Shown: one piece after another, positions 10,409 to 43,371 of the stretch | Numbering within the stretch: position 1 is the first letter of the stretch | Layout of the letters: each line of letters opens with the position of its first letter | Source: Alphaproteobacteria bacterium | GTDB taxonomy: Bacteria; Pseudomonadota; Alphaproteobacteria; UBA828 | Reading direction: 5' to 3' | Assembly: GCA_965221125.1 (NCBI GenBank) | Contig: CBDCRW010000006.1 | Location: 640,001-704,000, forward strand | DNA length: 64,000 bases | Notes under the pieces: model-generated | The model's input: only the letters and a program-made list of their open reading frames with translations | Told to the model about the DNA's origin: nothing | The model's database searches: none | Translations under genes and position numbers: made by a program

Positions 10409-10605
10409 GCGCCGAGGTGGACGCACCCGGGACTCGGAAGGGCGCACTATGGACATCCGCGGTCGATTGTCAACGCCCAAAGGAGCTCTCCGTGACGGCC
10501 CACCGCACCGCCAAGCCACCGTCGCTGCGCCATCGGCGCGCGCCGGCCGGCCCGGATGCCGGGGCGTCTCGCAAAAGGGATGGAAGTCTTATAATAGGGT
10601 GCGTC

Positions 10606-11442
10606 ATGGCACGCAACACTTCTCGCCGCCCGCGCGAGCGAACGGCCGGGCGCCGGCGCACGCATCAGGAGCAGCGCAGCCAGGCCAGGCCCCGGCGCGA
10701 ACGGCTCTACGGCGCCCACGCGGTGGCCGCCGCGCTCGCCAACCCGAGCCGCCGCTGCCACCGGCTGATCGCGACGCAGGAGGGCGCCACGCTGCTGGCT
10801 GGGCGCATCGACGCCCGCGCGCTGCCGCTTGCCGCCCGCGGCCTGCTCGATGCGCCGCAGATCGCGTCCCGCCAGGATATCGCGGCGCTCTTGCCGGACG
10901 GCGCCGTGCATCAGGGCATCGTGCTGGAGACGGCGCCGCTGCCGGCGGTCGATCTCGCGTCCGCCTGCAGAAGCCTCGCGCAGCGGGAGGGCGCAGCACG
11001 GACCGTGGTCGTGCTCGACCAGGTGACGGACCCGCACAACGTCGGTGCGATCCTGCGCTCGGCGGCGGCCTTCGCGGTGGGCGCCGTCGTGGTCCAGGAC
11101 CGCCATTCGCCCCAGAGCGCCGGCGCGCTCGCCAAGGCCGCCTCCGGCGCGCTGGAAACGGTGCCGCTCGCCCGCGTCGTCAACATCGCGCGATCCCTTA
11201 TCGTCCTGAAGGAGCTGGGTTATTGGTGCCTCGGCCTGGATCAGGACGCCGCCGAGCCGATCGAGGCCGTCTCCGTGCGGGCGCCGCTCGCGCTGGTCCT
11301 CGGCGCCGAAGGCGAGGGCATGCGGCGGCTCACGCGCGAGCGCTGCGATCTCACCGCCCGAATCCCCATGCCGGGCGCGATGGCGAGCCTCAACGTCTCC
11401 AACGCGGCCGCCATCGCGCTCTACGAGGTCGCGCGGCGATGA
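10606..11442 (+). CDS. rlmB: TrmH/SpoU-family RNA methyltransferase (23S rRNA Gm2251 methyltransferase-like)
   Basis: HQGIVL, VVLDQVTDPHNVGAILRSA, LVLGAEGEGMR, SLNVSNAAAIALYE; conserved position divergent from tRNA-Tyr. Confidence 0.9.
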   Translation: MARNTSRRPRERTAGRRRTHQEQRSQARPRRERLYGAHAVAAALANPSRRCHRLIATQEGATLLAGRIDARALPLAARGLLDAPQIASRQDIAALLPDGAVHQGIVLETAPLPAVDLASACRSLAQREGAARTVVVLDQVTDPHNVGAILRSAAAFAVGAVVVQDRHSPQSAGALAKAASGALETVPLARVVNIARSLIVLKELGYWCLGLDQDAAEPIEAVSVRAPLALVLGAEGEGMRRLTRERCDLTARIPMPGAMASLNVSNAAAIALYEVARR

Positions 11443-11523
11443 GCGCTGCGTGCTTGACAGGGCCTGCGGGCCGCGCTTGAAAGCGGACCTTCCGTGATCG
11501 TGCGCACTTCGAGCGAACTTCCG

Positions 11524-11599
11524 GCCGGCGTAGCTCAACTGGTAGAGCACTTGATTTGTAATCAAGGGGTTGCGGGTTCGAGTCCTGCCGCCGGCACCA
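11524..11599 (+). tRNA. tRNA-Thr (TGT)
   Basis: GCCGGCGTAGCTCAACTGGTAGAGCA-CTTGATT-TGT-AATCAAG-GGGTTGCGGGTTCGAGTCCTGCCGCCGGCACCA. Confidence 0.97.
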
Positions 11600-20110: not shown

Positions 20111-21760
20111 CTAGACACGGTTGCGGTCGAAGGTGGGCTGCACGCCCGACCCGTAGAGCTTGAGCGCGCCGTCGGGGCCGACGGTGTTGGGGCGCTGAAA
20201 GATCCAGTTCTGCCAGGCGGAGAGGCGGCCGAAGATCTTGGTCTCGAGCGTCTCCGGCCCGGCGAAGCGGAGAGAGGCCTCCATGCCGGAGAGCGCGTCG
20301 GGCGAGAAGGCCGCGCGCGCCTCGATGGCGACGCGGACCTCGTCCTCCCAGTCGATATCGTCGGGCGCGAAGGTGACGAGGCCGAGCGCGTCCGCCGCCT
20401 CGGCGTCGAGGTTGTCGCCCACGGCATCGAGCGCCGCGGCGAGCGCCGCGTCGTCGCCGAAGAAGCGGCTCGCGAGCCGCGACAGCCCGTTCGCCATCGG
20501 CAGCGGGCCGGTGTTCATCGCCGTGAGCCGCACCGTCGCCGGCGCGAGGTTCGACTCCTCGAAGGTGCCGTCCAGCATGAAGCTGCGATCGGCGGCAAGC
20601 GCCAGCTCCAGCAGCGTGCCGGTGAAGCAGGAGCCCGGCTCGATCAGCGCGACGAGGCTGCGCGCGCTCACGTCGAGGCGCTTGAGCGTGCGCTTGAGGT
20701 AGAGGGTGATCTCGCGCACCAGCCAGTCGCCGGCGTGATCGGCGAGCGCGGCATCGGCCGCGGCGACATGGTCGGCCGCGCCCGCCGTCCTGAGGATCCA
20801 GGTGCCGAGCGTTGGCTCGTTGAAGCGGAGATGCAGGATCGCGTCGTCGAGCTCGCGCGCGAGCGCCAGCGGCCAGAAGTCGGGGCCGGCGGCGTGGATC
20901 GCGGCGGGCTCGGCAGGCGGCGGCGCGTCGGGCGCGGAGACCGTGAGCGTCGCCGTGCCCTGCGCCCGGTCGAGCGCGACGTGGACGTGGGCGTAGGCGA
21001 TGGCGTCGTCACTCACGCTGCGGGCAAGCGGGGTGAGCGCGATTCCCTGCGTATCGGCCGGCCGGTCCGAGCCCTCGGCAAGCGCAGTAGCGCGGGCGGC
21101 CACGGCGTCGCCCAGGCGGGAGCGCGGCACCAGCTCGTCGACCAGGTTCCACTCCAGCGCGCGGCGCCCGCGCACGCCTTCGCCGGTGGTGCAGAAGAAG
21201 TCGGCACGGTCTCGGCGCACACAGCGCTTGTCGACGACGCGCGTGAGCCCGCCGGTGCCCGGCAGGACCGCGAGCAGCGGCACCTCGGGCAGCGACACGG
21301 CGGTCGAGCCGTCATCCACCAGGAGGATGTGGTCGGTGGCGAGCGCCAGCTCGTAGCCGCCGCCCGCGGCGGTGCCGGCGACCACGGTCATCCAGCGCTG
21401 GCCGGAGTTGGCGGACGCGTCCTCGATGGCGTTGCGGGTCTCGTTGGTGAACTTGCAGAAGTTGACCTTGTCGATGTGGGACGAGCGGGAGAGCATCGCG
21501 ATGTTGGCGCCGGCGCAGAACACGCGGTCCTTCGCGGACGTGAGCACCACGGCGCGCACCTGCGGGTGCTCGAAGCGGAGCCGCTGGACGGCGTCGTGGA
21601 GCTCGATATCGACGCCGAGGTCGTAGGAGTTGAGCTTGAGCGTGTAGTCGCCGGCGATGGCACCGTTCTCGTCCACGTCGAGCGCGAGCGTGGCGATGGC
21701 GCCGTCCACGGAGAGCCGCCAGTGGCGGTAGTCGTCCGGCCGGGTGCGGAAGTCGATCAT
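20111..21760 (-). CDS. boxC: 2,3-epoxybenzoyl-CoA dihydrolase BoxC
   Basis: IDFRTRPDDYRHWRL, LKLNSYDLGVDIELHDAVQRLRFEHP, KVNFCKFTNETRN, LSAWQNWIFQRPN. Start at ATG 21760 after GGAG. Confidence 0.94.
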   Translation of the reverse strand: MIDFRTRPDDYRHWRLSVDGAIATLALDVDENGAIAGDYTLKLNSYDLGVDIELHDAVQRLRFEHPQVRAVVLTSAKDRVFCAGANIAMLSRSSHIDKVNFCKFTNETRNAIEDASANSGQRWMTVVAGTAAGGGYELALATDHILLVDDGSTAVSLPEVPLLAVLPGTGGLTRVVDKRCVRRDRADFFCTTGEGVRGRRALEWNLVDELVPRSRLGDAVAARATALAEGSDRPADTQGIALTPLARSVSDDAIAYAHVHVALDRAQGTATLTVSAPDAPPPAEPAAIHAAGPDFWPLALARELDDAILHLRFNEPTLGTWILRTAGAADHVAAADAALADHAGDWLVREITLYLKRTLKRLDVSARSLVALIEPGSCFTGTLLELALAADRSFMLDGTFEESNLAPATVRLTAMNTGPLPMANGLSRLASRFFGDDAALAAALDAVGDNLDAEAADALGLVTFAPDDIDWEDEVRVAIEARAAFSPDALSGMEASLRFAGPETLETKIFGRLSAWQNWIFQRPNTVGPDGALKLYGSGVQPTFDRNRV

Positions 21761-23252: not shown

Positions 23253-23410
23253 TGATTCCGCGCGCCTCTCGGCTGTCCCTTGACTCCGCGCGCCTCTCGG
23301 CGCGACTGATTCCGCGCGCCTCTCGGCGCGACTGATTCCGCGCGCCTCTCGGCGCGACTGATTCCGCGCGCCTCTCGGCGCGACTGATTCCGCGCGCCTC
23401 TCGGCGCGAC
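23253..23410. repeat. Tandem array of a 26-bp hairpin-forming unit, 6 copies
   Basis: Unit TGATTCCGCGCGCCTCTCGGCGCGAC: four perfect copies at 23307, 23333, 23359 and 23385, variants at 23253 and 23281. Each intact unit holds a CGCGCC-TCTC-GGCGCG inverted repeat. Confidence 0.95.
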
Positions 23411-23415
23411 CCGCG

Positions 23416-23444
23416 TTGACAGGCTCGCGCCGGGCGCGGATAGT
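23416..23444 (+). promoter_or_regulatory. Putative sigma70 promoter of pheA
   Basis: TTGACA-N17-GATAGT, about 55 nt upstream of the pheA ATG. Confidence 0.6.
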
Positions 23445-26659: not shown

Positions 26660-27094
26660 TTACGCCGCAGCCGCCTTCAGTGCGGTGCGGGCGAGGGTGT
26701 CGGCGCGCTCGTTCTCGGCGTTGCCGGCGTGCGCCTTGACCCAGTGCCAGCTCACGTCGTGCCGGCCTGCGAGGGCGTCCAGCGCCTCCCACAGGTCGCG
26801 GTTCTTGACCGGGGACTTGGAAGCGGTGCGCCAGCCCCGCGCCTTCCAGTTGGGGAGCCAGCGGGTGATGCCGTCCCTCAGGTACGTGCTGTCGGTGTAG
26901 AGAGCGACCTGCGACGGGCGGGTGAGCGCCTCCAGCGCCCGGATCGCGGCGGTGAGCTCCATGCGGTTGTTGGTCGTCTGGGGCGCCGCGCCGCTCAACT
27001 CGCGGCGGTGGCCGCCATAGAGCAGCACCGCGCCCCAGCCGCCCGGCCCCGGATTGCCGCTGCACGCGCCGTCGGTATAGATCGCGACGCTCAC
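26660..27094 (-). CDS. rnhA: Ribonuclease HI
   Basis: [38 protein letters not shown]; GTG start overlaps the thrB stop. Confidence 0.96.
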
Positions 27095-28056
27095 GCCTCG
27101 ATCCCGTAGGCGCCGGGGTCCGCGACGCCGTGGTGAAAGCGGAGCTTGTGCAGGTACTCGCGCGGGTCCTTGGGGCTGACGAGGGCGCCGTCCACCTGGT
27201 TGATCCAGTCGTAGAGGCGGGTGAGCAGGAAGCGGAGCGCGGCGCCCTCCGCCAGCCGGGGCAGCGCCGCGATCTCGGCCGCCGAGCAGCGGCGCACCGC
27301 GCGGTAGCGGGCGATCAGGTAGCGCGCCTTGGTGACGTTGAAGCTCAGGTCGGGCTCGAAGCACCAGGCGTTGAGGCAGACGGCGAGGTCGTAGACCAGC
27401 GCGTCGTTGCAGGCGAAGTAGAAGTCGATCAGCCCGCTGAGCTTGTCGCGCTCGAAGAAGACGTTGTCGGGGAAGAGGTCGGCGTGGACGACGCCGCGCG
27501 GCAGGTCGCGGGGCCATTCCGCCTCGATGCGGTCGAGCGCGCGGGCGATCTCGTCCGCGAGGCCTGGCACCACGCCGTCGGCGCCGGCGCGGCAGCGCTC
27601 GAAGAGCGGGCGCCAGCTACCCAGCGAGAGGGCGTTGGCGCGCTGGGGCGCGTAGTCGAGGCCGGCGAGGTGCATCCGCGCCAGCGCCTCGCCGAGCTTC
27701 GCGCAGTGGTCGGGGCGGGGGCGGCGCGGCCAGACGCCCGCGAGGAAGCTCGTGATCGCCGCCGGCCGGTTGCAGAGCTGGCGCAGCACGGCGCCGTCGC
27801 GGCCGTGGACCGGCAGCGGGCAGGGCACGCCCCGCCCGGCCAGATGCTCGATCAGGCCGAGGAAGAAGGGGAGGTCCTTCGCGTCCACCCGCTTCTCGTA
27901 GAGCGTGAGGATGTAGGGGCCGCGCTCGGTCAGCAGCAGGTAGTTGGAGTTCTCGACGCCCTCGGCGATGCCTTTGCAGGAGACGGCCGTGCCGATGTCG
28001 TACTCGGCGAGGAAGGCGGCAAGCTCGTCGTCGGAGACTTCGGTGTAGACGGCCAT
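27091..28056 (-). CDS. thrB: Homoserine kinase (type II, APH-like)
   Basis: [50 protein letters not shown]. Confidence 0.95.
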
Positions 28057-28098
28057 CGGGCGCCCGCGCGGCGGGGAAGGGAATCGGGGCGCATCCTA

Positions 28099-28240
28099 GG
28101 GCGTTTCCGTTTTGCACGGAAACGCCCCGAGTCTTTATCGCTCACGGCAGCCGGTCTTCGACCGGCGCCTCCGCGGGGGCGCCGCATTCGCGGCGGGCCG
28201 CTGTCGCGGCCTGTCGCGCGTCCGCACAAGACGGACGCGC
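28099..28240. repeat. Multi-hairpin dispersed element, copy 1
   Basis: Homologous to 42151-42300; six consecutive inverted repeats. Confidence 0.85.
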
Positions 28241-28271
28241 TCCAGCGAAGCACGTCGCTGGAGGGGAGCCG

Positions 28272-29264
28272 CTATGCGGGCTCGGCCGCCGCGTCGGTGA
28301 GCACGGTGATCCCGGGGAAGCGGGCGGCGAGCGGGGCCACGCGGGCAGGCGGGCAGACGGCGAGCGCCGTGGAGAGCGCATCGGCCGCGGTGGCGCGGGA
28401 CGCGATGACCGAGACCTGCCCGGTGCCGGGCGCGGGCCGGCCGGTCGCGGGATCGAACAGGTGGTGGTGGCGGCCGCTCGGCTCGAACGGGCTCGCGATG
28501 CCGGCCGAGGTAGCCATCGCGCGGTCGGCGAGGGTGACGGTGCGGGCGACCGTCTCCGGCGCGGCGGCGCGGCGGAGGCCGACGCGCCAGGGGCGGCCTG
28601 CGGGATGACGGCCGAGCGCGCGGACCTCGCCGATGTCGAGCAGGACGTCGACCATGCCGGCGTCCTGCAGCAGCGCCGCCACGCGGTCGGTGATGTGGCC
28701 CTGCGCGATGCCGTTGAGCGTGACCGCCATGCCGGGCCGCGCGAAGCGGATTTCGCCGGGCCGGATGTCCACGGCGCGGTAGTCCACCAGCGCCCGCGCC
28801 CGCGCGATCTCCGCCTCGGCCGGCCCGCGCGCATCGGCGCCCGGCCGCGCGAAGTGCGCGGCATGGAGGCGCCAGAGCGGCTGCACGGTGGCGTCGAAGG
28901 CGCCTTCGGTTCGTTCCGAGTAGACGCGGGCCTCCGCCAGCAACGCGACGAGCTCCAGAGGGGGCGCCGGGATGCGGCCGTCGCGGTTGAGGCGGGAGAG
29001 CGCGCTCAACGGCCGGTAGAGGCTGAAAACGTCCTCGAGCCGCTCGATCTCGGAGACGCAGCGGGCGATGAGGCGGCGTGCGTGGGTTGCGTCCGGGTCG
29101 TGCAGGACGATCTCGGCGGCGGCCCCGAGGGCGATACCGGACCAGCGGTGCAGGTGCGCCGCCTCCGCGCGGGCGCCGGACGCCACAAGCGGGAAGCCGG
29201 CCGCGGCTGCGGCGACGGCGAGGAAGCGCCGCCGCGTCGGCGCAGCGCCCGGCCACCGGGTCAC
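28272..29264 (-). CDS. nosX: FAD:protein FMN transferase NosX (ApbE family)
   Basis: Tat signal TRRRFLAVA, FSLYRPLSALSRLN, GAFDATVQPLW, TLNGIAQG, HHLFDPATG; last gene of the nos operon. Confidence 0.92.
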   Translation of the reverse strand: MTRWPGAAPTRRRFLAVAAAAAGFPLVASGARAEAAHLHRWSGIALGAAAEIVLHDPDATHARRLIARCVSEIERLEDVFSLYRPLSALSRLNRDGRIPAPPLELVALLAEARVYSERTEGAFDATVQPLWRLHAAHFARPGADARGPAEAEIARARALVDYRAVDIRPGEIRFARPGMAVTLNGIAQGHITDRVAALLQDAGMVDVLLDIGEVRALGRHPAGRPWRVGLRRAAAPETVARTVTLADRAMATSAGIASPFEPSGRHHHLFDPATGRPAPGTGQVSVIASRATAADALSTALAVCPPARVAPLAARFPGITVLTDAAAEPA

Positions 29265-29809
29265 TGATGGTCTCCGTGCCGGGGCGCCGCCGCGTCGTCT
29301 TCCTCGGCGTAGGCGAAGATATAGCTTTCCGGCACCTCGTTGAGCGCGACGATGCGCCCGCCGTGGGCCGCCACGAAGCGCTCGGCGGCGTCGCGGGCGG
29401 CGAACGGCACCGCTTCGGGCACGCCCATGCCGCCCATGCGCGCGCTGCCGATCACGTAGTGGGCGCCATTGGCGTCGATCCAGGTGCCGGGCTCCGGCGC
29501 GTCCCATTGGGCCGTGCCCATGTCGTTCACGTAGATGGCGGTGTAGTTCCTGGGCTCCTCCGGCAGCATGGTGAAGGCGATGGCATCGCGCACCGAGGAG
29601 AACCACACCGGCTCCTCCTCGTCCGGCAGATGCACCTGCGCCTTGGGTCCCGCGTGGTCGAGCAGGATCATGCCGCAGTAGTGGCCGAAGGCGTCGCGGC
29701 TGGGCTCCACGGCTGCGGGCTTGGCCACGACCTCGTCGTCGTCGCCGCAGCCAGCAAGCCCGGAGAGCGCGAGCATGGCGACGGCCAGCAGGACAGCTAA
29801 GCGCCTCAC
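29261..29809 (-). CDS. nosL: Copper chaperone lipoprotein NosL
   Basis: Lipobox LAGC, HYCGMIL.DHAGPKAQ, WFSSVRDA, GGMGVPEAVPF. Confidence 0.93.
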   Translation of the reverse strand: MRRLAVLLAVAMLALSGLAGCGDDDEVVAKPAAVEPSRDAFGHYCGMILLDHAGPKAQVHLPDEEEPVWFSSVRDAIAFTMLPEEPRNYTAIYVNDMGTAQWDAPEPGTWIDANGAHYVIGSARMGGMGVPEAVPFAARDAAERFVAAHGGRIVALNEVPESYIFAYAEEDDAAAPRHGDHQ

Positions 29810-30633
29810 AGCTCCTTCCTCCCGAAGAGCAGGCCCGCGAGGCCGAGGGGCACCGCGATCCAGAGCGCCATGACCGGCAGCAGGATTGCGTGGCCGAACG
29901 CGGCCTCCGCGCTCACGCCCGCCATGCCGGAGAGCGCGCCCACGGTCTCGGAGCCGGAGAGGGTGAGCATGCGGTACACGTCGGTCGGATTGAGCAGCAG
30001 GAGCACGCGGAAGAGCTCGCCGGAGACGACCTGCCCTTCGTCGGCGACCAGGATGGCGAGCAGCGCCATGTCGAAGAGCACGACGAAGACCAGCCACGCC
30101 GCCGCCGAGACGCCGGCCGCCGTGCCGCGCTCGGCGACCACGGCGCTGAAGAGCGTGCCGAGGGCGACGAAGGCCGCGCCCAGCAGGATCGAGGCGCCGA
30201 CCATAACGCCGAAGGCGCCCCACGCCTCCCCATCGCCGCCGTCGCCGAGGCCGGTGACCAGCGCGGCCACGCCGAAGCCCGTGACGGTGGCCACCGCGAG
30301 GATCGTCACCTGGCCCGCGAACTTGCCGAGCACGATGCGCCAGCGCGTGACCGGGTGGGTCATGAGCAGCGGCATGGTGCCGCGCTCGATCTCGCCCACC
30401 AGCGTGTCGTAGCTGACCAGGAGGCCGATGAGCGGCACCAGGAAGACCGAGAGGCTGGAGAGGCTGACCACGGTGATCGCGAGCGGCGACGCCGCGACCG
30501 CGCCGCCCGGCGCGCTGCCGACGAAGGCCAGCGTCAACGCGAGGACGCCGAGCAGCAGCGAGGCGGCGAGCATCCAGCGGTTGCGGATGCCGGCGAGGAC
30601 CTCGTGCCCGGCGATGGCGGTGACCGCGGTCAC
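29806..30633 (-). CDS. nosY: ABC transporter permease NosY
   Basis: IRNRW, SLSSLSVFLVPLIGLL, GEIERGTMPLLMTHPV, LLNPTDVYR. Confidence 0.92.
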   Translation of the reverse strand: MTAVTAIAGHEVLAGIRNRWMLAASLLLGVLALTLAFVGSAPGGAVAASPLAITVVSLSSLSVFLVPLIGLLVSYDTLVGEIERGTMPLLMTHPVTRWRIVLGKFAGQVTILAVATVTGFGVAALVTGLGDGGDGEAWGAFGVMVGASILLGAAFVALGTLFSAVVAERGTAAGVSAAAWLVFVVLFDMALLAILVADEGQVVSGELFRVLLLLNPTDVYRMLTLSGSETVGALSGMAGVSAEAAFGHAILLPVMALWIAVPLGLAGLLFGRKEL

Positions 30634-31556
30634 GGCGCGCGCTCCCGCTCCGCCCCGCCGAAGCGCGCGTAGACGGCATCGAGGCCGGGGGGGACGATCT
30701 CGATATCCTGCACTTCGTCGCCGGCGCTCATGATGCGCCGGATCAGGGCGGGTTTTTGGCCGGCGGAGCAGCGGAGCTCGACGGCGTGGTCGTTGATCCG
30801 CGTCGCCACATCGCTTCCGAGGGCGTCCGCGAGGCGCGCGCCGCCGCCGGGGCGGACGGCCACGCGGATGGTGATGCCGAGCCCGGCTTCGCGCTTGAGC
30901 TCGTCCGCCGTGCCCAGGGCCGCGAGCGAGCCTGCGCGCATGATGGCGACGCGGTCGGTCCCGGCCTCGACCTCGGTGAGCACGTGGGAGGAGAGGACGA
31001 TGGCGGTGCCCCCGGCGGCGAGCGCGCTGAGCGTCGCGTGAAAGTCGCGGCGCGAGTCCGGGTCGAGCCCGCCGGTGGGCTCGTCCAGGACGAGCAGCCG
31101 GGGCGCGCCCAGGATCGCCTGCGCGAAGCCCAGGCGCTGGCGCATGCCCTTGGAGTAGGTCTTGACCCGCTTGCCGGCGGCGTGCGCGAGGCCCACGTGC
31201 GCGAGCGCCTCCTCGCAGGCGGATTTGCGCGCCCCCTTGAGGCGGCCGTAGAAGCGGATCGTCTCGCGCCCGGTCATGGAGCCGTGGAAGGCCGCGCTCT
31301 CGGGCAGGAAGCCGATTGCCCGCTTCGCTTCCGTCCAACCCCGGCTTCCGGGCGCGCAGCCGAGCGTCGTCACGCGGCCGCCGTCGGCCCGCGTGAGGCC
31401 CAGTGCGAGCTTGAGCAGCGTCGTCTTGCCCGCGCCGTTGTGGCCGAGGAGGGCGAGGCGCTCGCCGGGCGCGAGGTCGAGGGTCACGCCGCCCACCGCC
31501 GTCTCCCGGCCATAGGTCTTGACGACCGCCTCCAGCGCGAGCGCGGGCGCCGCCAT
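30630..31556 (-). CDS. nosF: ABC transporter ATPase NosF
   Basis: GHNGAGKTT, TYSKGMRQRLG, LDEPTGGLDP. Confidence 0.93.
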   Translation of the reverse strand: MAAPALALEAVVKTYGRETAVGGVTLDLAPGERLALLGHNGAGKTTLLKLALGLTRADGGRVTTLGCAPGSRGWTEAKRAIGFLPESAAFHGSMTGRETIRFYGRLKGARKSACEEALAHVGLAHAAGKRVKTYSKGMRQRLGFAQAILGAPRLLVLDEPTGGLDPDSRRDFHATLSALAAGGTAIVLSSHVLTEVEAGTDRVAIMRAGSLAALGTADELKREAGLGITIRVAVRPGGGARLADALGSDVATRINDHAVELRCSAGQKPALIRRIMSAGDEVQDIEIVPPGLDAVYARFGGAERERAP

Positions 31557-32827
31557 CAGCCCTCTCCGAGCGCGGGCGGGCGCATGAGCGGGGCGGAATC
31601 GGTCACGCCGCCCGGATAGATCGAGGGGAAGCGGTCATGCGCCCAGCGCAGGATGCGCACGGACGGGCTGGTGAGCAGCAGCTTCGCCAGCGGATGGCGC
31701 CAGACCACCTGGTCGACCAGGTCGTTGGGGCGGTAGGGCGCGTCGGCGATGCCGTCGCCGTCGAGGTCGAAGGCGGGGTTGTCGCTCCAGTAGTTGCCGA
31801 CGCCGTCGGCGGACCACTCGACGTGGCGGGTGCCGACGTACTTCACCTGCGTCTGGTTGGCGACGAAGCCGTTGCCCGCGATGCGGTTGCCCTCGGAGCC
31901 GGCGGTGAAGTGGATGCCGATGGCGCAGCCTTCGAAGAGATTGCCGCTGAGCACGTTGCGGTTGGCATTGTAGAGGAAGACGCACTTGTCGCGGCCGGCG
32001 CGCACGCGGTTGCCCTCGATCCGCGACTTGTTGGTGAAGTTGAAGAGGAAGCCGTGGTCGCGGTCGCCGGCGGAGCGGTTGTCGAACACGCGGAGGCGGT
32101 CCGAGTACATCAGCGCGTAGCCCACGTGGTTGCCGCGGGAGACGTTGCCGCTCACCTCGCTGTCGTGGGTGTACATGTAGTGGATGGCGAAGCGGAGGTC
32201 GCTGAAGCTGTTGCCCCGGAACGCGTTCTTGCGGCTGGTGGTGACGAAGATGCCGTCGCGGCCGTAGCGCACGGTGTTGCCTTCCACCACCGAGCCCCTG
32301 GCCGCCCAGAGGTGGATGCCGTTGCCGCGCTCGCTCATGCGCAAGTCGCGGTTGCCGATGACCTCGTTGCCGCGCACCAGCGCGTCGCGCGCGCCGTGGA
32401 GGTAGATGCCGAAGAGGTTGTTTTCCAGCCGGTTGCCCTCGATGAGCGCGCCGCTCGCCGGCTTGTCGAGGAAGATGCCGGCGTCGGTCTCGGCGAGGCT
32501 CGTGCCGGAGTTGCGGACGGTGAGGCCGCGCACGGTGACGTCCGGCGCGGCGACGCTCAAGACCCGGCCCGCGCCGCCGCCGTCGAGGATGGCGCCGGGC
32601 GCGCCCTCCAGGGTGAGCGTGCGTTCGATGGCGACGGGCCCTGGATAGACGCCAGGCGCCAGCCTCACCACCGCGTCGGCAGGCGCGGCATCCAGCGCCG
32701 CCTGCAGCGTGCCTTCCCCCGGAGAAACCTCGATGACCGCGGCAGACGCGGCGCGCACCCCCGGAGCCGCGGCGGCGAGGATCGCCACCGCCGCGCCGAG
32801 GGCGAGCGCCGCGCGCCGCAGGCGCAT
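31556..32827 (-). CDS. nosD: Nitrous oxide reductase maturation protein NosD
   Basis: Beta-helix repeats, ERGNGIHLW, GRDGIF, LRFAIHYMY, GNYWSD, DLDGDGIADAPYRPN. Confidence 0.94.
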   Translation of the reverse strand: MRLRRAALALGAAVAILAAAAPGVRAASAAVIEVSPGEGTLQAALDAAPADAVVRLAPGVYPGPVAIERTLTLEGAPGAILDGGGAGRVLSVAAPDVTVRGLTVRNSGTSLAETDAGIFLDKPASGALIEGNRLENNLFGIYLHGARDALVRGNEVIGNRDLRMSERGNGIHLWAARGSVVEGNTVRYGRDGIFVTTSRKNAFRGNSFSDLRFAIHYMYTHDSEVSGNVSRGNHVGYALMYSDRLRVFDNRSAGDRDHGFLFNFTNKSRIEGNRVRAGRDKCVFLYNANRNVLSGNLFEGCAIGIHFTAGSEGNRIAGNGFVANQTQVKYVGTRHVEWSADGVGNYWSDNPAFDLDGDGIADAPYRPNDLVDQVVWRHPLAKLLLTSPSVRILRWAHDRFPSIYPGGVTDSAPLMRPPALGEG

Positions 32828-34758
32828 CAGGCGGACTTCGGCTTCACGAACATACGCCCGCGCATCTCCATGTGCAGCGCATGACAGAACCACTGGCAGT
32901 AGAACCAGTGGACGCCCGGCCGGTCCGCGGTGAAGGTCACGGACGCGGTCGCCTGCGGCGCCACCTCCATGGCCACGCCGTAGTTGGACAGGGTCCAGCC
33001 GTGGCTGAGGTCGTCCACGTCGTCCTGGTTGGTGATGTAGACGGTGACCTCGTCGCCCTCGTTCACCTCGAAGGTCTCGAGGCTGAAGGCCGGCGCGATC
33101 GAGTACATGTAGACCCGCACCTTGTTGCCGTCGCGGATGACATCCTCGCCCCAGTCGAGATCGACGCCATCCTTCGCCGCCTGCTGGCGCGCCTCCTCCC
33201 AGGTCGGGTCCTCGCGGTCCCAGATCTGGTTCGGGTTCACCTTGGAGCGGTGGACGATGATGCAGTCGTGGGGCTCGGAGAAGGTCGGGCCGTCATGCAC
33301 CAGCTCCATGCTGTCGCCGGAGATGTCGATGAGCTGCTCGCATTCGGGCTTGAGCGGGCCCACGTTGATGAAGCGGTCCTTCGAGAACTTGTTCAGCGAG
33401 ACGAGCCACTTGCCGTCCGCCTCCTTGGTCTCGCCCATCGACGTGTGGTTGTGGCCGGGCTGGTAGTGCACGTCGATCTTCTCGACGATCGGGTCCACAT
33501 CCTCGCCGTTGTACTGGCGGATGGCGGCGTCCATGTTCCACTTGCAGACCTGGCTGTCGAGGAAGATCGTGGTGAAGCAGTTGCCCTTGCCGTCGTAGGC
33601 GGTGTGCAGCGGCCCGAGGCCCAGCTCCGGCTCGGCCACGATCACGTCGCGCGGCGCGATCTTGTCCTCGAACAGGTCGTCGAGGCGGCGCACGTCGATG
33701 ACCGAGACGGTGGGGGACAGCTTGCCGTTGATGACGATGTGGTGGCCGTCGGGCGCGGTGTTGACGCCGTGCGGGCTGGTGGAGATCGGGATGTAGCGCG
33801 TGTACGGCGAGCCCTTGCGGCCGTCGAGCACCTTGACGCCCTGGTGCATGGTGTAGTCGCCGTCCTTCACCCCCTGCTCGATGCGGGCGATGTTGAAGAC
33901 GACGGCCCAGTCCTGCTCGGCGGCGGTCATCTCTTCGAGGTTCATGCCCATCTCGGAGTTGTAGCAGGTCGAGACCGCGTACTTGCCCTGGTAGTCGGCA
34001 TCGACGTTGTCGAGGTTGCCGTCGACGATCACCTGCCAGGCGACCTCCATGCTGTCGCCGTCGAGCGCCGTGAAGATGGCGATGTACTGAGACGGGTCGT
34101 TGAGCACGGAGCCGTCGTTGGGCAGCGGGATCTCGTGCTCGCCGTTGCAGAACACGTAGCCGGTGCGCGGGTATTTTTGGGGGCGCAGGCCGTGGATGTC
34201 GTTGGCGTTCGGGATCTCCACGATCTTGTCGACCTTCATCACGTCGCAGCGGATGCGGGCGACGCGCGTGTTCGCCTTGTCGTTGATCCAGACGTAGCGC
34301 CCGTCGTAGGTGCCGTCGGTGAACGACATGTGCGGGTGGTGCGCATCGCCGTTGGTGTAGATGCCGCCGCGGGATTCGAGGAACTTCCGGGTCTCGGGCG
34401 TGAGCCCTTCCGTCATGATCCTGCGGCTCTCGTTGGTGACGCCCCAGCCGGTGGCGCTGCAGCGGTTGAACACCGGGATGCGGAGAAGCTCGCGCATGGA
34501 GGGCACGCCGAAGACGCGCACCTCGCCGGCCTGGCCGGACGACCAGAAGCCGTAGTACTCGTCGAGCTGACCCGGCCCCACGAAGGCCGAGCCCGCCTCG
34601 GTGGCGGCCTTTGCCTTGCGCGGCGGGTCTGCCGGCGTGACCCCGGCCACGCCGGCCGCGACCACGCCGCCGACGGTGGCGATCTTGGCCGTGCTGCCGA
34701 TCAGATCGCGTCGTGTGACGCCGGTCTTCTCCGGCGCATCGTGTTTCTTCTTCGACAT
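32827..34758 (-). CDS. nosZ: Nitrous-oxide reductase, clade I (Tat-exported)
   Basis: Tat motif [34 protein letters not shown], CuA motif [14 protein letters not shown]. Confidence 0.98.
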
Positions 34759-34781
34759 GGTTCTCTCCTCTTTGCTTGGCA

Positions 34782-37043
34782 TCAGGGACTCGTCGTGGTG
34801 CCGGTTGGGCCCGCCGGTGCTGCAGGCGGAACGGTGATGTTCGCGGACGCCCGCGCGCGCCGGCGCTCGCGCCGCAGGCGGCGCTGGATCATGGGCGGGC
34901 AGCGGTGCTCGTCGTGGTAGAGCTGCTGGCAGTGCAGGCAGTAGAGGCACTCGTTCTGGTTGATGTGCCCGTCGGGGTGGATCGCCTGCACCATGCATTC
35001 CTGGGCGCAGCGGTGGCAGGGCGCGCCGCACTCCTTGTGGCGGCGCAGCCACTCCATGATCCTGATCTTGCCGGGGATCGCGAGCGCAGCGCCCAGCGGG
35101 CAGAGGTAGCGGCAGAAGAAGCGCTCGATGAAGAGCCCGGTGGCGAGCAGCACGCCGGCCCAGGCCACGAACGGCCAGTCGTGGGCGAAGCGCAGGATCA
35201 CCGTGGTCTTGAAGGGCTCGACCTCCGCCAGGCGCTCGGCGAAGGCGAGGTCGTGCAGGGAGATGCCGAAGATGCCGATGAAGATCACGTACTTCACCGG
35301 CCAGAGCCGCTCGTGCAGGCCCCAGGGGAGCGTCACCTGCGGCACGCGCGCGAGCCGCGCCGCCTTGTTGAGCAGCTCCTGCAGCGCGCCGAAGGGGCAG
35401 AGCCAGCCGCAGAACACGCCCCGGCCCCAGAAGATCAGCGCCATCGCCGTGCCGCACCAGAGCAGGAAGATCAGCGGGTCCATCAGGAAGTAGGACCAGC
35501 GGAACTCGGTGATGAGCGCGTTGCCGAAGGTGAGCACGTTCACCACCGAGAGCTGGGCCTGGGCGAAGCCGCCGAGCCAGGCGACGATGAAGAGGAGGAA
35601 GCCGACGCGCACGGCGGTCGCCAGCTTCGGCCGGCGCGCGAACCAGTCCTGGAAGAAGAAGATGAGCGTGAGCGCGATGAGGGCGGCGGCCAGCACCGCC
35701 ACGTCGACGAGCCGGTCCTCCCAGATGCGCCGCCAGAGCTCGGGCGCGGCCTCCGGCTCGGCGAAGGCGTCGGCGGCTGCGGTCTCCGCCACCTGCGGCG
35801 GCGCGGGCAGCGGCTTCAGGTAGCGCGCGGGCAGGGTGTAGGAGAGCTCGTAGAGCAGGAAATCCTTGTCGAGCGCGCCGATCGCGCGCTGCACCAGGAG
35901 CTGGAGCGTCCACGGTGCTGCGGGGTCGAACGCGGCGTCGGCCGGCACGACGAAGAGGGCGACCTCGGCGAAGGGCTGCGCGAGGTCCGCCGCCACCTCG
36001 CCGAGCAGCTTGTAGTTGCGGTCGCGGAAGCGGACGCTGCCGTCACCCTGGGCGAGCTGGATACGGTCGAAGATGCCGCCCCGCACGAAGCCCGAGCCGC
36101 GGAAGGAGTAGAGGCCGTTGGCGGCGATCAGCAGTGCGTGCTGGCCGGGCTCCAGGCGGGCGAGGAGGTTCCCGTACTCGGCATCGCCCAGCAGGCTGCG
36201 GCCGATGACGGGCGCGCTCACCAGCGCCGCGTAGAGGTCGATGAAGCGCTCCTCCGGGTCCTCGCTCTCGGGCCGGGCGGCGGCCTTCTCCTTGCCTGCA
36301 GCGGCGAAGCCGGTGGTGACGTCGCCCACGCTGAGGCTGAGCCGGCGCACGGAGCCGTCGCCGATCAGCGTCATCCAGTCGTCCACGCCCTCCTGCGCGG
36401 TGTCGATCTCGCCCCGGCGCGGCGCCTCCAGCGCGTGGCCCGCACCGAGACCGGCGAGGCCGAGCGCGCGCGCCATCTTCACCGTGGCGTGGCGGATCGC
36501 GTCGTCGATGACCAGGATCGTGACCGTGGCGCCCGCGATGATGTCGAGCGAGCGGTCGCCGGAATCGCGCTCCTCAAGAAACTCGGCCACGTTGCGCCCG
36601 ACATAGCCGGCGATGAAGCTCTTCACCTTCCGCTCGGGGATGCCGATGAGCACGATGGGCTCGTGGTGCTCGTGCAGATGGGCGCCGGTGATCGTGCCCT
36701 CGGTATCGAGCCCGATGAGGAGGTGGATGGGCTTGCCCGAATAGCCCACCGCGCCCACGACATCGGTGTTGAGAAAGACGTGGCCCACAGGCGTGGAGCC
36801 TTCGAGCGCCTGCGCCCTGGGCGGCGTGCCCTCGACCGGGCCGAAGCGGTCGGCGCCCGGCACCAGGTCGCCGGGGTCGACCGTGGCGAGCGCGCTGCCG
36901 AGTTCGACGGCGGCGCGGGCGGTGTGCCCGGCGCCCGCGAGGAGCAGCGCGAGCAGCAGCAGACACGCGCCGGCGATGCCGATGCGGATGGCACGCGCCG
37001 ACGCGCTGCGCTGAGCAGCGCCTGGTACGGAAACCGCTGTCAT
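34782..37043 (-). CDS. nosR: NosR membrane FMN/Fe-S protein
   Basis: GYSGKPI, DIIAGAT FMN site, [47 protein letters not shown]. Confidence 0.95.
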
Positions 37044-37134
37044 GGCTGATGCGTCAAGACGGGCGCGCGCCGCCTCCTCGAATACGCCGACGGACTCGAG
37101 CATCGACAGTCTGAAGCGCGCATGCGCCAACGCC

Positions 37135-38179: not shown

Positions 38180-41965
<3,786 letters not shown>

Positions 41966-41990: not shown

Positions 41991-42021
41991 AAAAACACCC
42001 GCCGCGGCTTTGCCGGGCGGG
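41991..42021 (-). terminator. Intrinsic terminator in the metH leader
   Basis: Minus strand CCCGCC-CGGC-AAA-GCCG-C-GGCGGG followed by TGTTTTT; lies between the riboswitch and the metH start. Confidence 0.7.
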
Positions 42022-42027
42022 CCCCAA

Positions 42028-42080
42028 CGCTTTAGCCGCATTTGTAAAGCGCCCGCAAGCTGTCGCTCAAATCGGCGCTG
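42028..42080 (-). ncRNA. SAM-II (SAM-alpha) riboswitch
   Basis: Minus strand AGCGCC-GATTTGA-GCGACAGC-TTGC-GGGCGCT-TTACAAAT-GCGGCTAAA-GCG matches the SAM-II pseudoknot consensus. It is upstream of metH, with a TTGACA at 42110-42115 further upstream. Confidence 0.88.
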
Positions 42081-42150
42081 TGGAGCTTTATCTAGAAGTC
42101 GCGTGATTCTGTCAAGAGAATGAAGGTATCGGGCCGATGCGCCCCTGACG

Positions 42151-42300
42151 CTTGGACCGTTCCCGTTTTACACGGAAACGGTCCAAGAATCTTTCGCTCA
42201 CGGCGGCCGGCCTTTAGCCGGCGCCTCCGCGAGGGCGCCGCATTCGCGGCGGGCCGCTGTCGCGGCCTAGCGCGCGTCCGTCGAAGTCGGACGCGCGCTA
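42151..42300. repeat. Multi-hairpin dispersed element, copy 2
   Basis: Homologous to 28099-28240 with stem-preserving substitutions; the last stem overlaps the ABC ATPase stop codon. Confidence 0.85.
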
Positions 42301-43371
42301 ACGGGCCGAGCGGATGAGCGCGCCGGTCTCGCCGTGGAAGAGGTGGCAGCGGTCGGGATCGAGCGCGAGCCGCACCGGCTCGCCAAGGTTGAACTGGGGC
42401 TGGCCCGGCGCCTGCACCTTGAGAATGCGCTCGCCCGCGCTGACATCGACGATGGTGAAGGCGCCGAGCGGCTCGACCTCGTAGATGCTTGCTTCGACCC
42501 CGCCGTTGGCGCCGGCAGAGCCGATGCCGATGTCCTCGGGCCGCACCGCAAGCGCCGCGGGACCCGCCCCGTCGGCGCCGTCCAGCGACACCGCGAGCGG
42601 CACGTCGCTCCCCTCGAAGCGGCCGCCCTGCGCGAGCGTGCCGTCGATGAAGTTCATCGGCGGGGAGCCGATCAGCTCGGCGACGTAGCGGCTGTTGGGC
42701 AGGTTGTAGATCTCGGCCGGCGTGCCGATCTGGCGGATTTCGCCGGCCTCCATCACGGCGATGCGATCGGCGATCGACATCGCCTCTTCCTGGTCGTGGG
42801 TGACGTAGACGATGGTGTGGTGCAATTCGCGCTGCAGGCGCTTCAGCTCGACGCGCATCTCCTCGCGCAGGCGCGCATCGAGGGCTGCGATCGGCTCGTC
42901 CATGAGGAAGGCCGCCGGGTCCCGCACCAGGGCGCGGCCGATGGCGACGCGCTGGCGCTCGCCGCCGCTCAGGTGCGCCGGCAGCTTGTCGAGCAGCGGC
43001 GTGATGTGGAGCGTCTCCGCTACCTGGCCCACGCGTTCCATGACCGCGGCCTTCTCCAGCTTCCGCTCCACCAGCGGGAAGGCGAGGTTCTGGCCGGCGG
43101 TCATGTGCGGGAAGAGCGCCAGATTCTGGAACACCATGGCGAGGTTGCGCTCCTTCGGCCCCTGATCGCTGACCGCCGCGCCGCCGATGGTGATCTCGCC
43201 CTCGTCGGGCGCCACCAGCCCGAGCAGCAGGCGGAGGATCGTGGTCTTGCCCGAGCTCGGCGGGCCGAAGATGCAGAAGAACTCGTTGTCGTCCACGACG
43301 AGGTCGATGTCCTTCACGGCGACGGTCTTGCCGTAGAACTTGCTCGCGTTGCTCAGTTCGAGCCGTGCCAT
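42298..43371 (-). CDS. ABC transporter ATP-binding protein (MalK/CUT1 type)
   Basis: GPPSSGKTT, LSGGERQRVAIG, MDEPIAALD, YVTHDQEEAM, C-terminal TOBE domain. Confidence 0.92.
   Translation of the reverse strand: MARLELSNASKFYGKTVAVKDIDLVVDDNEFFCIFGPPSSGKTTILRLLLGLVAPDEGEITIGGAAVSDQGPKERNLAMVFQNLALFPHMTAGQNLAFPLVERKLEKAAVMERVGQVAETLHITPLLDKLPAHLSGGERQRVAIGRALVRDPAAFLMDEPIAALDARLREEMRVELKRLQRELHHTIVYVTHDQEEAMSIADRIAVMEAGEIRQIGTPAEIYNLPNSRYVAELIGSPPMNFIDGTLAQGGRFEGSDVPLAVSLDGADGAGPAALAVRPEDIGIGSAGANGGVEASIYEVEPLGAFTIVDVSAGERILKVQAPGQPQFNLGEPVRLALDPDRCHLFHGETGALIRSAR

Follow-up and report, generated by a model that had tools for sequence, protein, structure and literature searches.

A dispersed family of ordered multi-hairpin repeats at gene 3' ends in Alphaproteobacteria

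Two stretches of the 64-kb window (the whole stretch of DNA that was analysed), 28096-28245 (copy 1) and 42151-42300 (copy 2), carry the same element of about 150 nt, a series of ordered GC-rich hairpins. Copies of this element lie at gene 3' ends, mainly between convergent genes, and the TAG of a terminal (C)TAG is often the stop codon of the neighbouring gene. The pairing of hairpins H1, H2, H3, and H6 is maintained by selection or by another pairing-preserving process. In kind, the family is akin to REP/BIME elements, to the rhizobial and bradyrhizobial REP mosaics, and to small MITEs, and it is not catalogued in its present form. The reading we favour, and hold to be rather likely, is that both stretches belong to an old alphaproteobacterial family of non-autonomous, mosaic, multi-hairpin repeats of REP/BIME- or MITE-like type with a stabilizing or attenuating role at 3' ends. 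The predicted role of the element transcript is probably that of a 3'-end stabilizer or attenuator, and it may be an RNase substrate.

Two copies of the element in the window

By convention, the element is read from H1 to H6 on the + strand of the window, and the coordinates of its parts are given on that strand. The sequence-only reading of this DNA had located two hairpin-rich copies, and both are present, 84-85% identical: ungapped alignment gave 84% identity over 146 nt (28102-28247 against 42158-42303), and the padded stretches had a mean column identity of 85%. The predicted fold of copy 1 reaches -115 kcal/mol (+ strand) and -114 kcal/mol (- strand), compared with about -85 kcal/mol for shuffles (z = -6.1 and -6.7, respectively), and none of 200 shuffles folded equally well. 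For copy 2, z was -9.1 on the - strand. R1, a covariance model of the family core, assigned 124.5 bits to the core of copy 1 (28131-28249) and 118 bits to that of copy 2 (42187-42305). The runner-up on the + strand of the 64 kb, 20408-20517, obtained 14.3 bits and was discarded as a chance match because it sits inside coding sequence. R1 separates true copies (more than 100 bits) from background (less than 15 bits in the window), which makes it a usable model. Repeat search and R1 agree on exactly two copies in the window, and R1 run with its filters off found no third. Linker-only sites with one mismatch were not in excess in the window (8 against 5.9 expected from shuffles), and no solo H1 or H6 hairpins were detected elsewhere in the window or across about 140 kb of flanking sequence. 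The whole window, scanned against Rfam at gathering thresholds, matched only four tRNAs and SAM_alpha, leaving the element unmatched. A permissive Rfam scan of both copies (E up to 10) returned chance matches only, the best at 21.2 bits against a threshold of 52. By blastn, copy 1 had no match among plasmids and copy 2 none among phages.

Copy 1 (28096..28245), delimited by the alignment and by R1, lies between two genes on the - strand. It opens with CTAG (28096-28099), followed by H1 (28099..28127), a perfect 12-bp hairpin, a T-rich spacer, and the conserved, unpaired linker TCGCTCACGGC (28138..28148). H2 (GCCGGT/ACCGGC, 28150..28166), supported by sequence and by covariation in the family, precedes H3 (28170..28179), a 3-bp mini-stem with a GCGG loop and the covarying pair 41-48. 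H4 (28180..28195) and H5 (28196..28211) are adjacent 6-bp hairpins with tetraloops; this core served as the search anchor. After H6 (28216..28240) comes CTCCAG, a degenerate version of the terminal CTCTAG of the family. An extra, seventh hairpin (CTCCAGCG/CGCTGGAG, 28240..28263) separates the element from the stop codon of the ApbE/NosX-like gene (28272-28274); this hairpin is private to copy 1, as neither copy 2 nor the family alignment has it. In copy 2 (42151..42300), likewise delimited by alignment and R1, H1 (42151..42187) forms a 16-bp stem, with compensated changes relative to copy 1 in its outer part. The same linker lies at 42194..42204, and H2 (42206..42222), the H3 mini-stem (42226..42235), H4 (42236..42251), H5 (42252..42267), and H6 (42268..42300), whose stem is lengthened to 13 bp, follow. 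The terminal CTA of copy 2 (42298-42300) is the TAG stop codon of a UgpC-like ABC ATPase gene (42298-43371, - strand).

Most of these parts had been described correctly from the letters alone, including H1, H2 with its T-A to C-G swap, H4, H5, H6, and the linker. H3 is the exception. It had been drawn as a 9/7 stem, but its sole covarying pair fits a mini-stem of 3 bp closed around a GCGR loop, and the adjacent GGC/GCC extend H2. RNAalifold also proposed pairing between TCGC of the linker and GCGA of H3, possibly a pseudoknot with the H3 loop, which was left out of the model; those columns are invariant, so this pairing is neither backed nor refuted.

Copy 1 is located between the nos cluster and thrB, and copy 2 between an ABC-transporter operon and a metH gene controlled by a SAM riboswitch. 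The ApbE-family (ApbE/NosX-like) gene (28272..29606, - strand), the last of the nos-type cluster, points its 3' end toward copy 1, and the start codon of the homoserine kinase gene thrB (27091..28056, - strand) is 42 nt past H1. A SAM-alpha riboswitch (42012..42088, - strand), identified by its Rfam match, lies 62 nt past H1 of copy 2 and forms the leader of metH (38180..41965, - strand). No canonical intrinsic terminator, a GC-rich hairpin with a T run directly behind it, was called at either copy, and no promoter was detected. Given the latter and the 42-nt distance, either read-through into thrB is substantial or a promoter lies within copy 1, which speaks against a strong stop.

Spread and mosaic architecture of the family

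A scan for the H4-H5 core located at least 59 loci in at least 20 assemblies, with at least nine in one chromosome (OY763937.1), which bears out the earlier suggestion of a dispersed repeat family. The scan required an exact match to the H4-H5 anchor, so the sample is biased toward copies having that core, and H4 and H5 are invariant in the anchored set because both served as the anchor. Among the matches listed, every source is alphaproteobacterial except one small contig, and the linker is present in 54 of the 62 anchored copies. Its columns are invariant or nearly so in 32 core copies. Copies without the anchor are detected by R1 as well (L010, 64.3 bits; L014, 52.7 bits). In Niveispirillum, R1 matched at 35.3 bits, and blastn found six places in the same record. 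Complete carrier chromosomes include OY763937.1, OZ253557.1, and OZ243972.1, and Niveispirillum is represented by NZ_CP025613.1. Cultured carriers include Yunchengibacter salinarum and Niveispirillum cyanobacteriorum, with a variant form in Roseomonas/Falsiroseomonas, which puts termination, the stability of mRNA, and cleavage by RNase III within reach of ordinary experiments.

A full copy consists, in order, of (C)TAG, H1, a T-rich spacer, the unpaired linker, H2 to H6, and CTCTA(G). H1 is optional, being present in 32 of 54 copies and missing from about 20. Across the family, a run of only 3-5 T appears 3-6 nt past H1. Some copies carry additional hairpin modules nested in the loops of H2 and H3, which lengthen the distance from linker to anchor from 40 nt to 66-96 nt. 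As in REP/BIME elements, these are short GC-rich extragenic palindromes with many copies per genome, assembled as mosaics of palindromic units together with other conserved motifs.

Maintenance of pairing

Covariation was counted in 32-51 copies and in orthologous pairs. The sequence-only reading had proposed that selection acts on secondary structure and had called for a covariance model and an Rfam search. The family alignments showed double changes, the search yielded no Rfam family, and pairing is kept both in the 32-51 copies and between orthologues, by selection or another process with the same outcome. In H1, 89% of cells are paired, with double changes in 11 of 16 pairs (52 cells); none of 500 shuffles was as good, and slid controls were 24-45% paired. 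Double changes were found in 6 of the 11 pairs of H6 and in 7 of the 36 pairs of the core (32 core copies), where pair 41-48 of H3 is C-G in 23 copies and G-C in 9. H5 showed compensated changes in copies not drawn by the anchor. Three orthologous pairs from different species carry compensated changes in H1, H2, H3, and H6. The orthologous elements are 80-90% identical, whereas the neighbouring non-element spacer is 64% identical or unalignable.

Identity of core copies averages 86.0% between genomes and 87.6% within genomes, and copies do not cluster by genome. The sole near-identical pair (L017/L025, 99%) comes from the same genome. Exchange between copies by gene conversion could give the same appearance of conservation at a site. 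Among mismatched cells, A-C/C-A outnumber G-T/T-G by 25 to 5 in H6 and by 25 to 16 in H1, an asymmetry of modest size that mutation bias could explain and to which the copies do not contribute independently.

Across orders, the unpaired linker and the H3-H4 core retain their sequence, whereas H2 and H6 keep only their pairing. This pattern would suit a DNA-level site, in which the linker and the H3-H5 core are the binding site of a nucleoid, gyrase, or IHF-type protein and the element works as a supercoiling organizer between convergent units rather than as RNA. BIMEs of E. coli have been proposed as binding sites for proteins of these types, positive supercoils accumulate between convergent genes, and convergent pairs are the preferred location of the family. 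However, the compensatory changes and the modules nested in loops suggest a folded single strand instead of duplex recognition, and a relative of the element is tolerated within an rRNA transcript. We regard a DNA-level site as very unlikely.

Position of the copies at gene ends

The position just past a stop codon, noticed earlier for the two window copies, is general across the family. Neighbouring genes were called with a GC3 heuristic rather than taken from annotation, and the position counts rest on those calls. Of 52 copies, 44 have a right neighbour encoded on the - strand. Among the 46 copies flanked by called genes on both sides, 30 lie between convergent genes, 12 between tandem genes, and 4 between divergent genes. 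Apart from stop-codon overlap, all examined copies are outside called ORFs. Among right neighbours, 19 of 44 genes have a stop codon that coincides with the element end, and among left neighbours the figure is 19 of 33. Copies often occupy the entire gap separating two stop codons. By these heuristic calls, the family shares with REP/BIME elements a location at 3' ends, between convergent genes or within operons, with depletion between divergent genes. For annotation, the family is a marker of gene and operon ends and accounts for hairpin-rich "intergenic" stretches and for some TAG stop codons. Integron attC sites, a riboswitch, and a CRISPR array were dropped as identities of the element because the copies are single and not arrayed, lie among housekeeping genes, and are found downstream rather than upstream.

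Three readings had been offered from the letters. A 3'-UTR stability element and a repeat or MITE both stand and are compatible with each other, but a free-standing ncRNA gene is unlikely because copies lie between stop codons, often without spacer. A dedicated family of trans-acting small RNA genes is in our view barely credible. Its strong fold and conserved structure would be in keeping with such a role, and trans action of REP-containing sRNAs is a speculation of the authors in the section compared of the Bradyrhizobium study (PMC5082802). Against it, no promoter-like or terminator-like signals were called, many copies occur per genome, the gap between two stop codons is often spanned in full, and a long unpaired seed region that varies from copy to copy is missing.

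Under the favoured reading, as repeats acting at 3' ends, transcripts of the flanking gene or genes would carry a settled element in their 3' UTR. Its stack of stable hairpins could then block 3' exonucleases and, being leaky, halt read-through in part, the element RNA may serve as an RNase III substrate, and the module would insulate neighbouring transcription units.

Junction sequences and mobility

Because hairpins H1 and H6 are related to each other, the ends of the element form an imperfect inverted repeat. When the right 15 nt are reverse-complemented, the left 15 nt agree with them at a mean of 10.0 of 15 positions (range 3-13, 32 H1-bearing copies), compared with 3.9 of 15 for random 15-mers; the copies without H1 (about 20) consequently have no left inverted repeat. 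Most copies have TA within (C)TAG at both junctions, a repeat that is inseparable from a true target duplication because it belongs to a conserved palindrome. CTAG is depleted about five-fold in the window (17 observed against 83 expected). TA or (C)TAG sites, which are rare in such GC-rich genomes, may have been the targets of the transposition or recombination that dispersed the family.

No transposase, including RAYT, IS200-type, and Y1/HUH enzymes, was found among the 41 ORFs of the window and 80 ORFs flanking other copies. The 80 flanking ORFs are unrelated housekeeping genes, and we know of no cognate transposase for the family. The homology between L006 and L051 stops at the right end of the element. 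Every site is filled in the three orthologous pairs, with no empty site or recent burst seen; the near-identical pair L017/L025 is the one exception to the latter. Comparison of the window flanks with the fetched loci by tblastx left no orthologous flank at a filter of 90 bits; the first matches were noise from GC-rich sequence.

Many of these features would be expected of a purely selfish MITE, moved by a DDE transposase acting in trans and duplicating TA in (C)TAG, as do transposases of the IS630 and IS5 families. Such a MITE would have no host function, and its location at gene ends would reflect the rarity of TA/CTAG sites together with tolerance of insertion. The selfish reading draws support from the inverted-repeat-like ends (10.0 of 15), the (C)TAG or TA at both junctions in most copies, the five-fold depletion of CTAG in the window, the scatter of copies among unrelated genes, the one near-identical pair inside a genome, and the long terminal stem of the rRNA insert described below, with CTAG in both arms. 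However, orthologous copies have kept more identity than the adjacent spacer and change by compensated pairs, which is unexpected for an immobile selfish copy. Copies do not cluster by genome, the left repeat is missing in about 20 of them, no transposase occurs among the 121 ORFs examined, and the internal hairpins and linker are kept across orders, more than the ends alone would need. We judge a purely selfish MITE to be unlikely.

Mobilization as single-stranded DNA had been put forward as well. The element would then be REPIN-like and moved by RAYT, or a palindrome-associated derivative of IS200/IS605, with H1 and H6 as the subterminal hairpins recognized by an HUH enzyme and (C)TAG as the cleavage or target tetranucleotide. 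In its favour, the two ends carry related hairpins with an identical tetranucleotide on the outer side, loops vary while hairpin pairing is kept, and the strand asymmetry of mismatches would fit a single-stranded form. No RAYT, IS200, or other Y1/HUH gene occurs in the 41 window ORFs or the 80 flanking ORFs. Moreover, the element has six different ordered hairpins rather than a simple inverted REP doublet, the orientation of copies follows the neighbouring genes, and no IS605-type or other RNA family of Rfam was matched. Such mobilization appears quite improbable.

A relative of the core inside 23S rRNA

R1 scored 50.6 and 34.7 bits in an insert in the 23S rRNA of Rhizobium sp. Q54 and Rhizobium sp. 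SSA_523. The insert is 245 nt long and lies in a 5' hairpin of 23S rRNA, which we read as helix 9 from its position (model positions about 135-143). The part that matches comprises the linker, H2-like, H3, and H4 segments. Like the family, the insert is built of palindromes, and both arms of its terminal stem contain CTAG; unlike the family, it has a terminal stem as long as about 30 bp and is without H5, H1, and H6. Only the relatives L061, L062, and L063 sit in 23S rRNA. The kinship covers only part of the 245 nt, and the window copies follow protein-coding genes and lie between them, so the window elements are related to part of an intervening sequence (IVS) but are not IVSs. The description of the element as unrecognised holds for Rfam, where no family matches it, and needs amending for its core, which has a relative within the known helix-9 IVS class of 23S rRNA.

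According to the portions of the literature compared, helix-9 IVSs of alphaproteobacterial 23S rRNA are excised with RNase III (PMC6121014, PMC2743711, PMC6191907), and the ends of the Brucella IVS are inverted repeats typical of mobile elements (PMC2743711). A relative of the core may have landed in, or given rise to, the helix-9 IVS, and if this link holds, the origin of rRNA intervening sequences becomes testable. It is conceivable, though we think it doubtful, that the family is a class-wide "stop-codon cassette", mobile and conserved in structure, which inserts at the TA of (C)TAG, rebuilds TAG stops on both strands at its two ends, supplies an RNase-processable 3' module for convergent genes, and has been recruited as the helix-9 IVS. 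If true, it would link extragenic repeats and rRNA fragmentation, which have so far been treated apart.

Comparison with known repeats

Small MITEs with a TA target (Correia, ERIC-type) have inverted-repeat ends and TA junctions, measure 100-150 bp, and are transcribed into neighbouring mRNAs; the folded RNA of Correia elements is cleaved by RNase III. Unlike the present family, they belong to other bacterial groups, are unrelated in sequence, and form one long foldback instead of a series of hairpins. The Rhizobium-specific intergenic mosaic elements (RIME), which contain large palindromes, resemble the family as alphaproteobacterial palindromic mosaics located between genes, a likeness of description and not of compared sequence.

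In the sections of the sources compared, REP/BIME elements of E. coli share with the family extragenic GC-rich palindromes, mosaics, and a location at 3' ends and between convergent genes. These sections present them as proposed partial terminators and mRNA stabilizers, with REPs near stop codons being common (bioRxiv 10.64898/2026.03.23.713779, PMC12306157, PMC5082802), and report that REP325 works as a terminator plus stabilizer (bioRxiv 10.64898/2026.03.23.713779). Compared by description in these sections, E. coli REPs are single units of about 35 nt in alternating orientation, whereas the family has six different hairpins in a fixed order. Br-REP1 and Br-REP2 of Bradyrhizobium/Rhodopseudomonas are described, in the section compared, in overlapping 3' UTRs of convergent genes and are used singly or with flanking palindromes as mosaics, in tens to hundreds of copies (PMC5082802). 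They are like the family in being alphaproteobacterial, in having several palindromes, in their mosaic structure, and in their place at convergent 3' ends, but their printed consensus is unrelated and has three stem-loops rather than five or six (PMC5082802). Stop-codon overlap, loop-nested modules, and an rRNA relative are not reported for Br-REP1 and Br-REP2 in that section (PMC5082802).

None of the publications found describes the family. It would add a well-defined, structure-supported entry to the poorly catalogued repeats of Alphaproteobacteria. Searched by blastn, 72,556 plasmid records, rhizobial megaplasmids included, gave partial matches only; one solo H1-like hairpin, followed by TTTTT, occurs on Agrobacterium vitis plasmids.

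Two copies of a six-hairpin element in the window

A hairpin-rich element occurring twice in the window had been proposed by a sequence-only reading, and reading both sites bore this out. The two copies are 84% identical over an ungapped 146 nt (85% in a padded alignment). Repeat finding, blastn against relatives, and a covariance model run with filters off all gave exactly two copies. The + orientation was defined as hairpin H1 first and H6 last, which is the + strand within the window. In copy 1, a CTAG (28096-28099) leads into H1 (28099-28127), followed by the linker TCGCTCACGGC (28138-28148), H2 (28150-28166), the small H3 (28170-28179), H4 (28180-28195), H5 (28196-28211), H6 (28216-28240), and an extra hairpin private to this copy (28240-28263), all on the + strand. 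Copy 2, likewise on the + strand, comprises H1 (42151-42187), the linker (42194-42204), H2 to H5 (42206-42267), and H6 (42268-42300). On both strands, the folding energy lies well beyond that of shuffled sequences (z -6.1 to -9.1).

The genes around both copies are all on the minus strand, and each copy lies just past a minus-strand stop codon, as had been stated. Copy 1 comes after the stop codon (28272-28274, minus strand) of an ApbE-family gene, the last of a cluster that also contains NosD-, ABC ATPase- and NosR-like genes. Downstream is thrB (homoserine kinase), whose ATG at 28056 lies 42 nt past H1. A UgpC-like ABC ATPase gene takes its stop codon from the last CTA of copy 2 (42298-42300), and a SAM-alpha riboswitch and then metH follow downstream. 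Simple scans detected no promoter-like or terminator-like sites at either copy region, and no transposase was present among the 41 GC3-supported window ORFs examined. The window has a G+C content of 69%, and CTAG is five-fold depleted in it (17 found, 83 expected).

The cluster that copy 1 borders at the 3' end is of nitrous-oxide-reductase type (28272-37130), with genes for NosR-like (34782-37130), NosD (31556-32893), ABC ATPase (30630-31556), and ApbE/NosX-like (28272-29606) proteins. The SAM-alpha riboswitch (42012-42088, minus strand; 37.2 bits, threshold 36), directly downstream of copy 2 and upstream of the methionine synthase gene metH (38180-41965), is ordinary for alphaproteobacteria. 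Four tRNA genes (8809-11596) beside tuf and the ribosomal-protein/rpoB region place the window in the core chromosome.

The copies belong to a widespread family with a mosaic architecture

Neither copy matched an Rfam family, which agrees with the earlier reading, in which it was not recognised as a known family. Scanning genomes for the H4-H5 core, with loops left free, identified at least 59 loci from at least 20 assemblies; the family sample consists of copies bearing this anchor and is hence biased toward that core. Among the 20 assemblies listed, 13 are alphaproteobacterial or 'Rhodospirillales' MAGs by record title, bar one Chloroflexota-binned contig, 6 are Roseomonas, Falsiroseomonas or Roseicella (Acetobacterales), and 1 is Yunchengibacter salinarum (Kordiimonadales). 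The Chloroflexota-binned contig (L021, 1.9 kb) carries a full family copy; every other carrier is alphaproteobacterial, and mis-binning is the likeliest explanation of its label. Single chromosomes hold several loci (at least 9 in OY763937.1 and at least 6 in OZ253557.1). By a covariance model of the family core, the family, or its core, has members in four or more orders: the 'Rhodospirillales' assemblies together with Azospirillaceae, Kordiimonadales, Acetobacterales, and Hyphomicrobiales. In Sphingomonadales, a weak relation to the variant form was found by blastn only.

A full copy opens with (C)TAG and H1 (consensus arms AGAGCGTTTCCG / CGGAAACGCTCT), continues with (C)TAG, a T-rich spacer, and the linker, and then runs through H2, the H3 mini-stem with its GCGR loop, H4, H5, TGTC, and H6 to a terminal CTCTA(G). 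The linker is present in 54 of 62 anchored copies (2 in the window and 60 in loci, among the matches listed); the other 8 are 7 Acetobacterales copies of the variant form and 1 truncated by a contig end. H1 is present in 32 of the 54 linker-bearing copies. From linker to anchor, 34 copies measure 40 nt, and copies with extra hairpin modules nested in the H2 and/or H3 loop measure 66-96 nt; these modules leave the remaining fold undisturbed. The kinship of H1 and H6 gives the element imperfect inverted-repeat termini, with a mean of 10.0 of 15 positions matching in the 32 H1 copies versus 3.9 for random 15-mers. No solo H1 or H6 hairpin was found in the rest of the window or in ~140 kb of flanks. 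In one locus (L036), both terminal repeats carry the same G-to-A variant (GAGCAT), which may be chance or a hint of co-evolving ends.

Window positions 23255-23436 hold about six 26-nt units in tandem (TGATTCCGCGCGCCTCTCGGCGCGAC), each a small hairpin, flanked by the genes for an AMP-binding enzyme (minus strand) and prephenate dehydratase (plus strand). Their hairpin motif (CGCGCGCCT-NNN-GGCGCG) is an optional H2-loop module in 6 family copies of other genomes (L007, L016, L026, L030, L037, and L059), which makes a module of this mosaic family the probable source of the array.

Pairing is kept across the family

The structure-preserving changes first noticed between the two window copies extend to further copies, and pairing is kept wherever it can be tested (H1, H6, the core, and H5 in copies found by the model only). 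In H1 (32 copies), 89% of cells are paired and double-sided changes occur in 11 of 16 pairs (52 cells); none of 500 shuffles was as good, and slid controls were 24-45% paired. Double changes also affect 6 of 11 pairs in H6 (51 copies) and 7 of 36 core pairs in the 32 gapless copies, including two H2 pairs and one H3 pair (C-G in 23 copies, G-C in 9). H4 and H5 are invariant within the anchored sample because they served as the search anchor, and H5 is compensated in model-only copies from Yunchengibacter (GGCCAC/GTGGCC) and Niveispirillum (GGCGGC/GCCGCC).

Since the shuffle control ignores relatedness, the comparison of orthologues weighs more. At three interspecies orthologous locus pairs (L006/L051, L009/L046, and L020/L023), the elements show compensated differences in H1, H2 (C-G to T-A), H3, and H6. 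They are 80-90% identical, similar to flanking coding sequence, versus 64% identity or no alignment for the non-element spacer beside them. Core copies from different genomes (86.0%, 463 pairs) resemble each other as much as those from one genome do (87.6%, 33 pairs), and the only recent-looking pair is L017/L025 (99%). Together, the compensated changes, the spacer contrast, and the between- and within-genome likeness point to purifying constraint on each copy in place. Gene conversion among copies is a possible alternative source of such apparent conservation.

Element termini often coincide with stop codons

Neighbouring genes were called heuristically, independently of annotation, as stop-to-stop ORFs with high third-position G+C. 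Minus-strand genes stand to the right of 44 of 52 copies and plus-strand genes to the left of 33 of 47; the right-hand gene is the more constant neighbour. With both neighbours called (46 copies), 30 arrangements are convergent, 12 tandem (9 of them sharing the window's own arrangement), and 4 divergent. Among the 44 minus-strand right genes, 19 end on the element itself, with the CTA of its final CTCTA(G) as stop codon. Likewise, 19 of the 33 plus-strand left genes stop at the element's left-side TAG, either that immediately preceding the spacer (11 copies lacking H1) or that of the H1-opening CTAG (8 copies). At several loci, both genes end exactly at the element termini and the element is the entire intergenic region.

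None of the 80 flanking ORFs scanned encodes a transposase; they are housekeeping and metabolic genes unrelated to one another. A tRNA-Leu gene precedes two orthologous copies. The homology between L006 and L051 ends at the element's right end, which would fit a rearrangement or insertion boundary.

Among non-Watson-Crick cells, A-C/C-A is commoner than G-T/T-G (25 versus 5 in H6, 25 versus 16 in H1). An A-C cell on the + strand corresponds to a G-U wobble on the minus strand. The asymmetry, counted over non-independent cells, is weak evidence that the strand read from the right-hand gene is the one that folds, or the one on which transcription-linked mutation acts.

Part of the family lies within 23S rRNA genes

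A blastn search of plasmid and chromid records with a consensus-like copy returned three kinds of partial match. In Agrobacterium vitis replicons, a solo H1-like hairpin between convergent CDSs precedes TTTTT and a remnant of the linker, and resembles a terminator there. Segments with the linker, an H2-like hairpin, H3, and H4 occur in Rhizobium sp. Q54 and Rhizobium sp. SSA_523 (50.6 and 34.7 bits by the family model), and in a third record, that of Nitratireductor thuwali, the score reaches no more than 14.8 bits. All three segments are inside a 23S rRNA gene. In Q54, a 245-nt insert containing the segment takes the place of an 8-nt loop in one hairpin of the Rfam LSU model (positions ~135-143) and folds with a ~30-bp terminal stem bearing CTAG in both arms. 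Judged from its position, this site is the helix-9 intervening sequence position of alphaproteobacterial 23S rRNA. Helix-9 inserts, according to published descriptions (PMC6121014, PMC2743711, PMC6191907), are excised by RNase III, built of palindromes, and bounded by inverted repeats typical of mobile elements. The 23S rRNA genes of these three (L061, 482-727; L062; L063) are on plasmid-labelled records and have a large insert in the 5' hairpin.

The Roseomonas-type variant has blastn relatives at 6 places in one Niveispirillum cyanobacteriorum record, one of which scores 35.3 bits with the full architecture and CTAG at both ends of H1. A weaker relative of this variant in the 16S-23S spacer of Sphingobium chromids (L065, 800-870; blastn, 80% identity over 66 nt) is antisense to the rRNA operon and gave no match by the family model.

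Proposed role at gene 3' ends

What the comparisons show is a mosaic repeat, dispersed and conserved in structure, that occupies gene 3' ends, has termini coinciding with stop codons, and in part also lies within an rRNA insert. The element is most likely non-autonomous, was probably dispersed into TA/(C)TAG sites, and, once there, would form the end of transcripts from the gene or genes beside it. Such a stack of stable hairpins would block 3' exonucleases and damp read-through, and RNase III may process it, as it does the rRNA inserts. Experimentally studied parallels to such a role are E. coli REP325, described as a partly Rho-dependent terminator plus stabiliser (bioRxiv 10.64898/2026.03.23.713779), and Bradyrhizobium REP mosaics in overlapping 3' UTRs of convergent genes (PMC5082802). 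Both window copies occupy exactly the kind of junction that would profit from insulation: copy 1 separates thrB from the nos cluster, and copy 2 separates riboswitch-controlled metH from a transporter operon. A strong terminator role is disfavoured, because no T-run terminator was called and thrB follows copy 1 by only 42 nt with no promoter detected.

No description of the family was found in the literature searched. Its kind is already known from extragenic palindromic mosaics, MITEs, and rRNA intervening sequences. New, as far as that literature shows, are the fixed order of six hairpins with loop-nested modules, the cross-order conservation of the linker-H3-H4 core, the systematic sharing of stop codons at both termini, and the connection of an extragenic repeat to an rRNA insert in helix 9.

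Other repeats in the window

Two blocks of 10-nt direct repeats (TTGTGCCACC with variants), together at least 8 copies in register, occupy an intergenic stretch at 55909-56056, upstream of a luciferase-like monooxygenase gene (56084-57208, minus strand), and could be a set of iterated protein-binding sites. A further direct repeat consists of two 66-nt units (46818-46883 and 48038-48103), 86% identical and 1220 nt apart.
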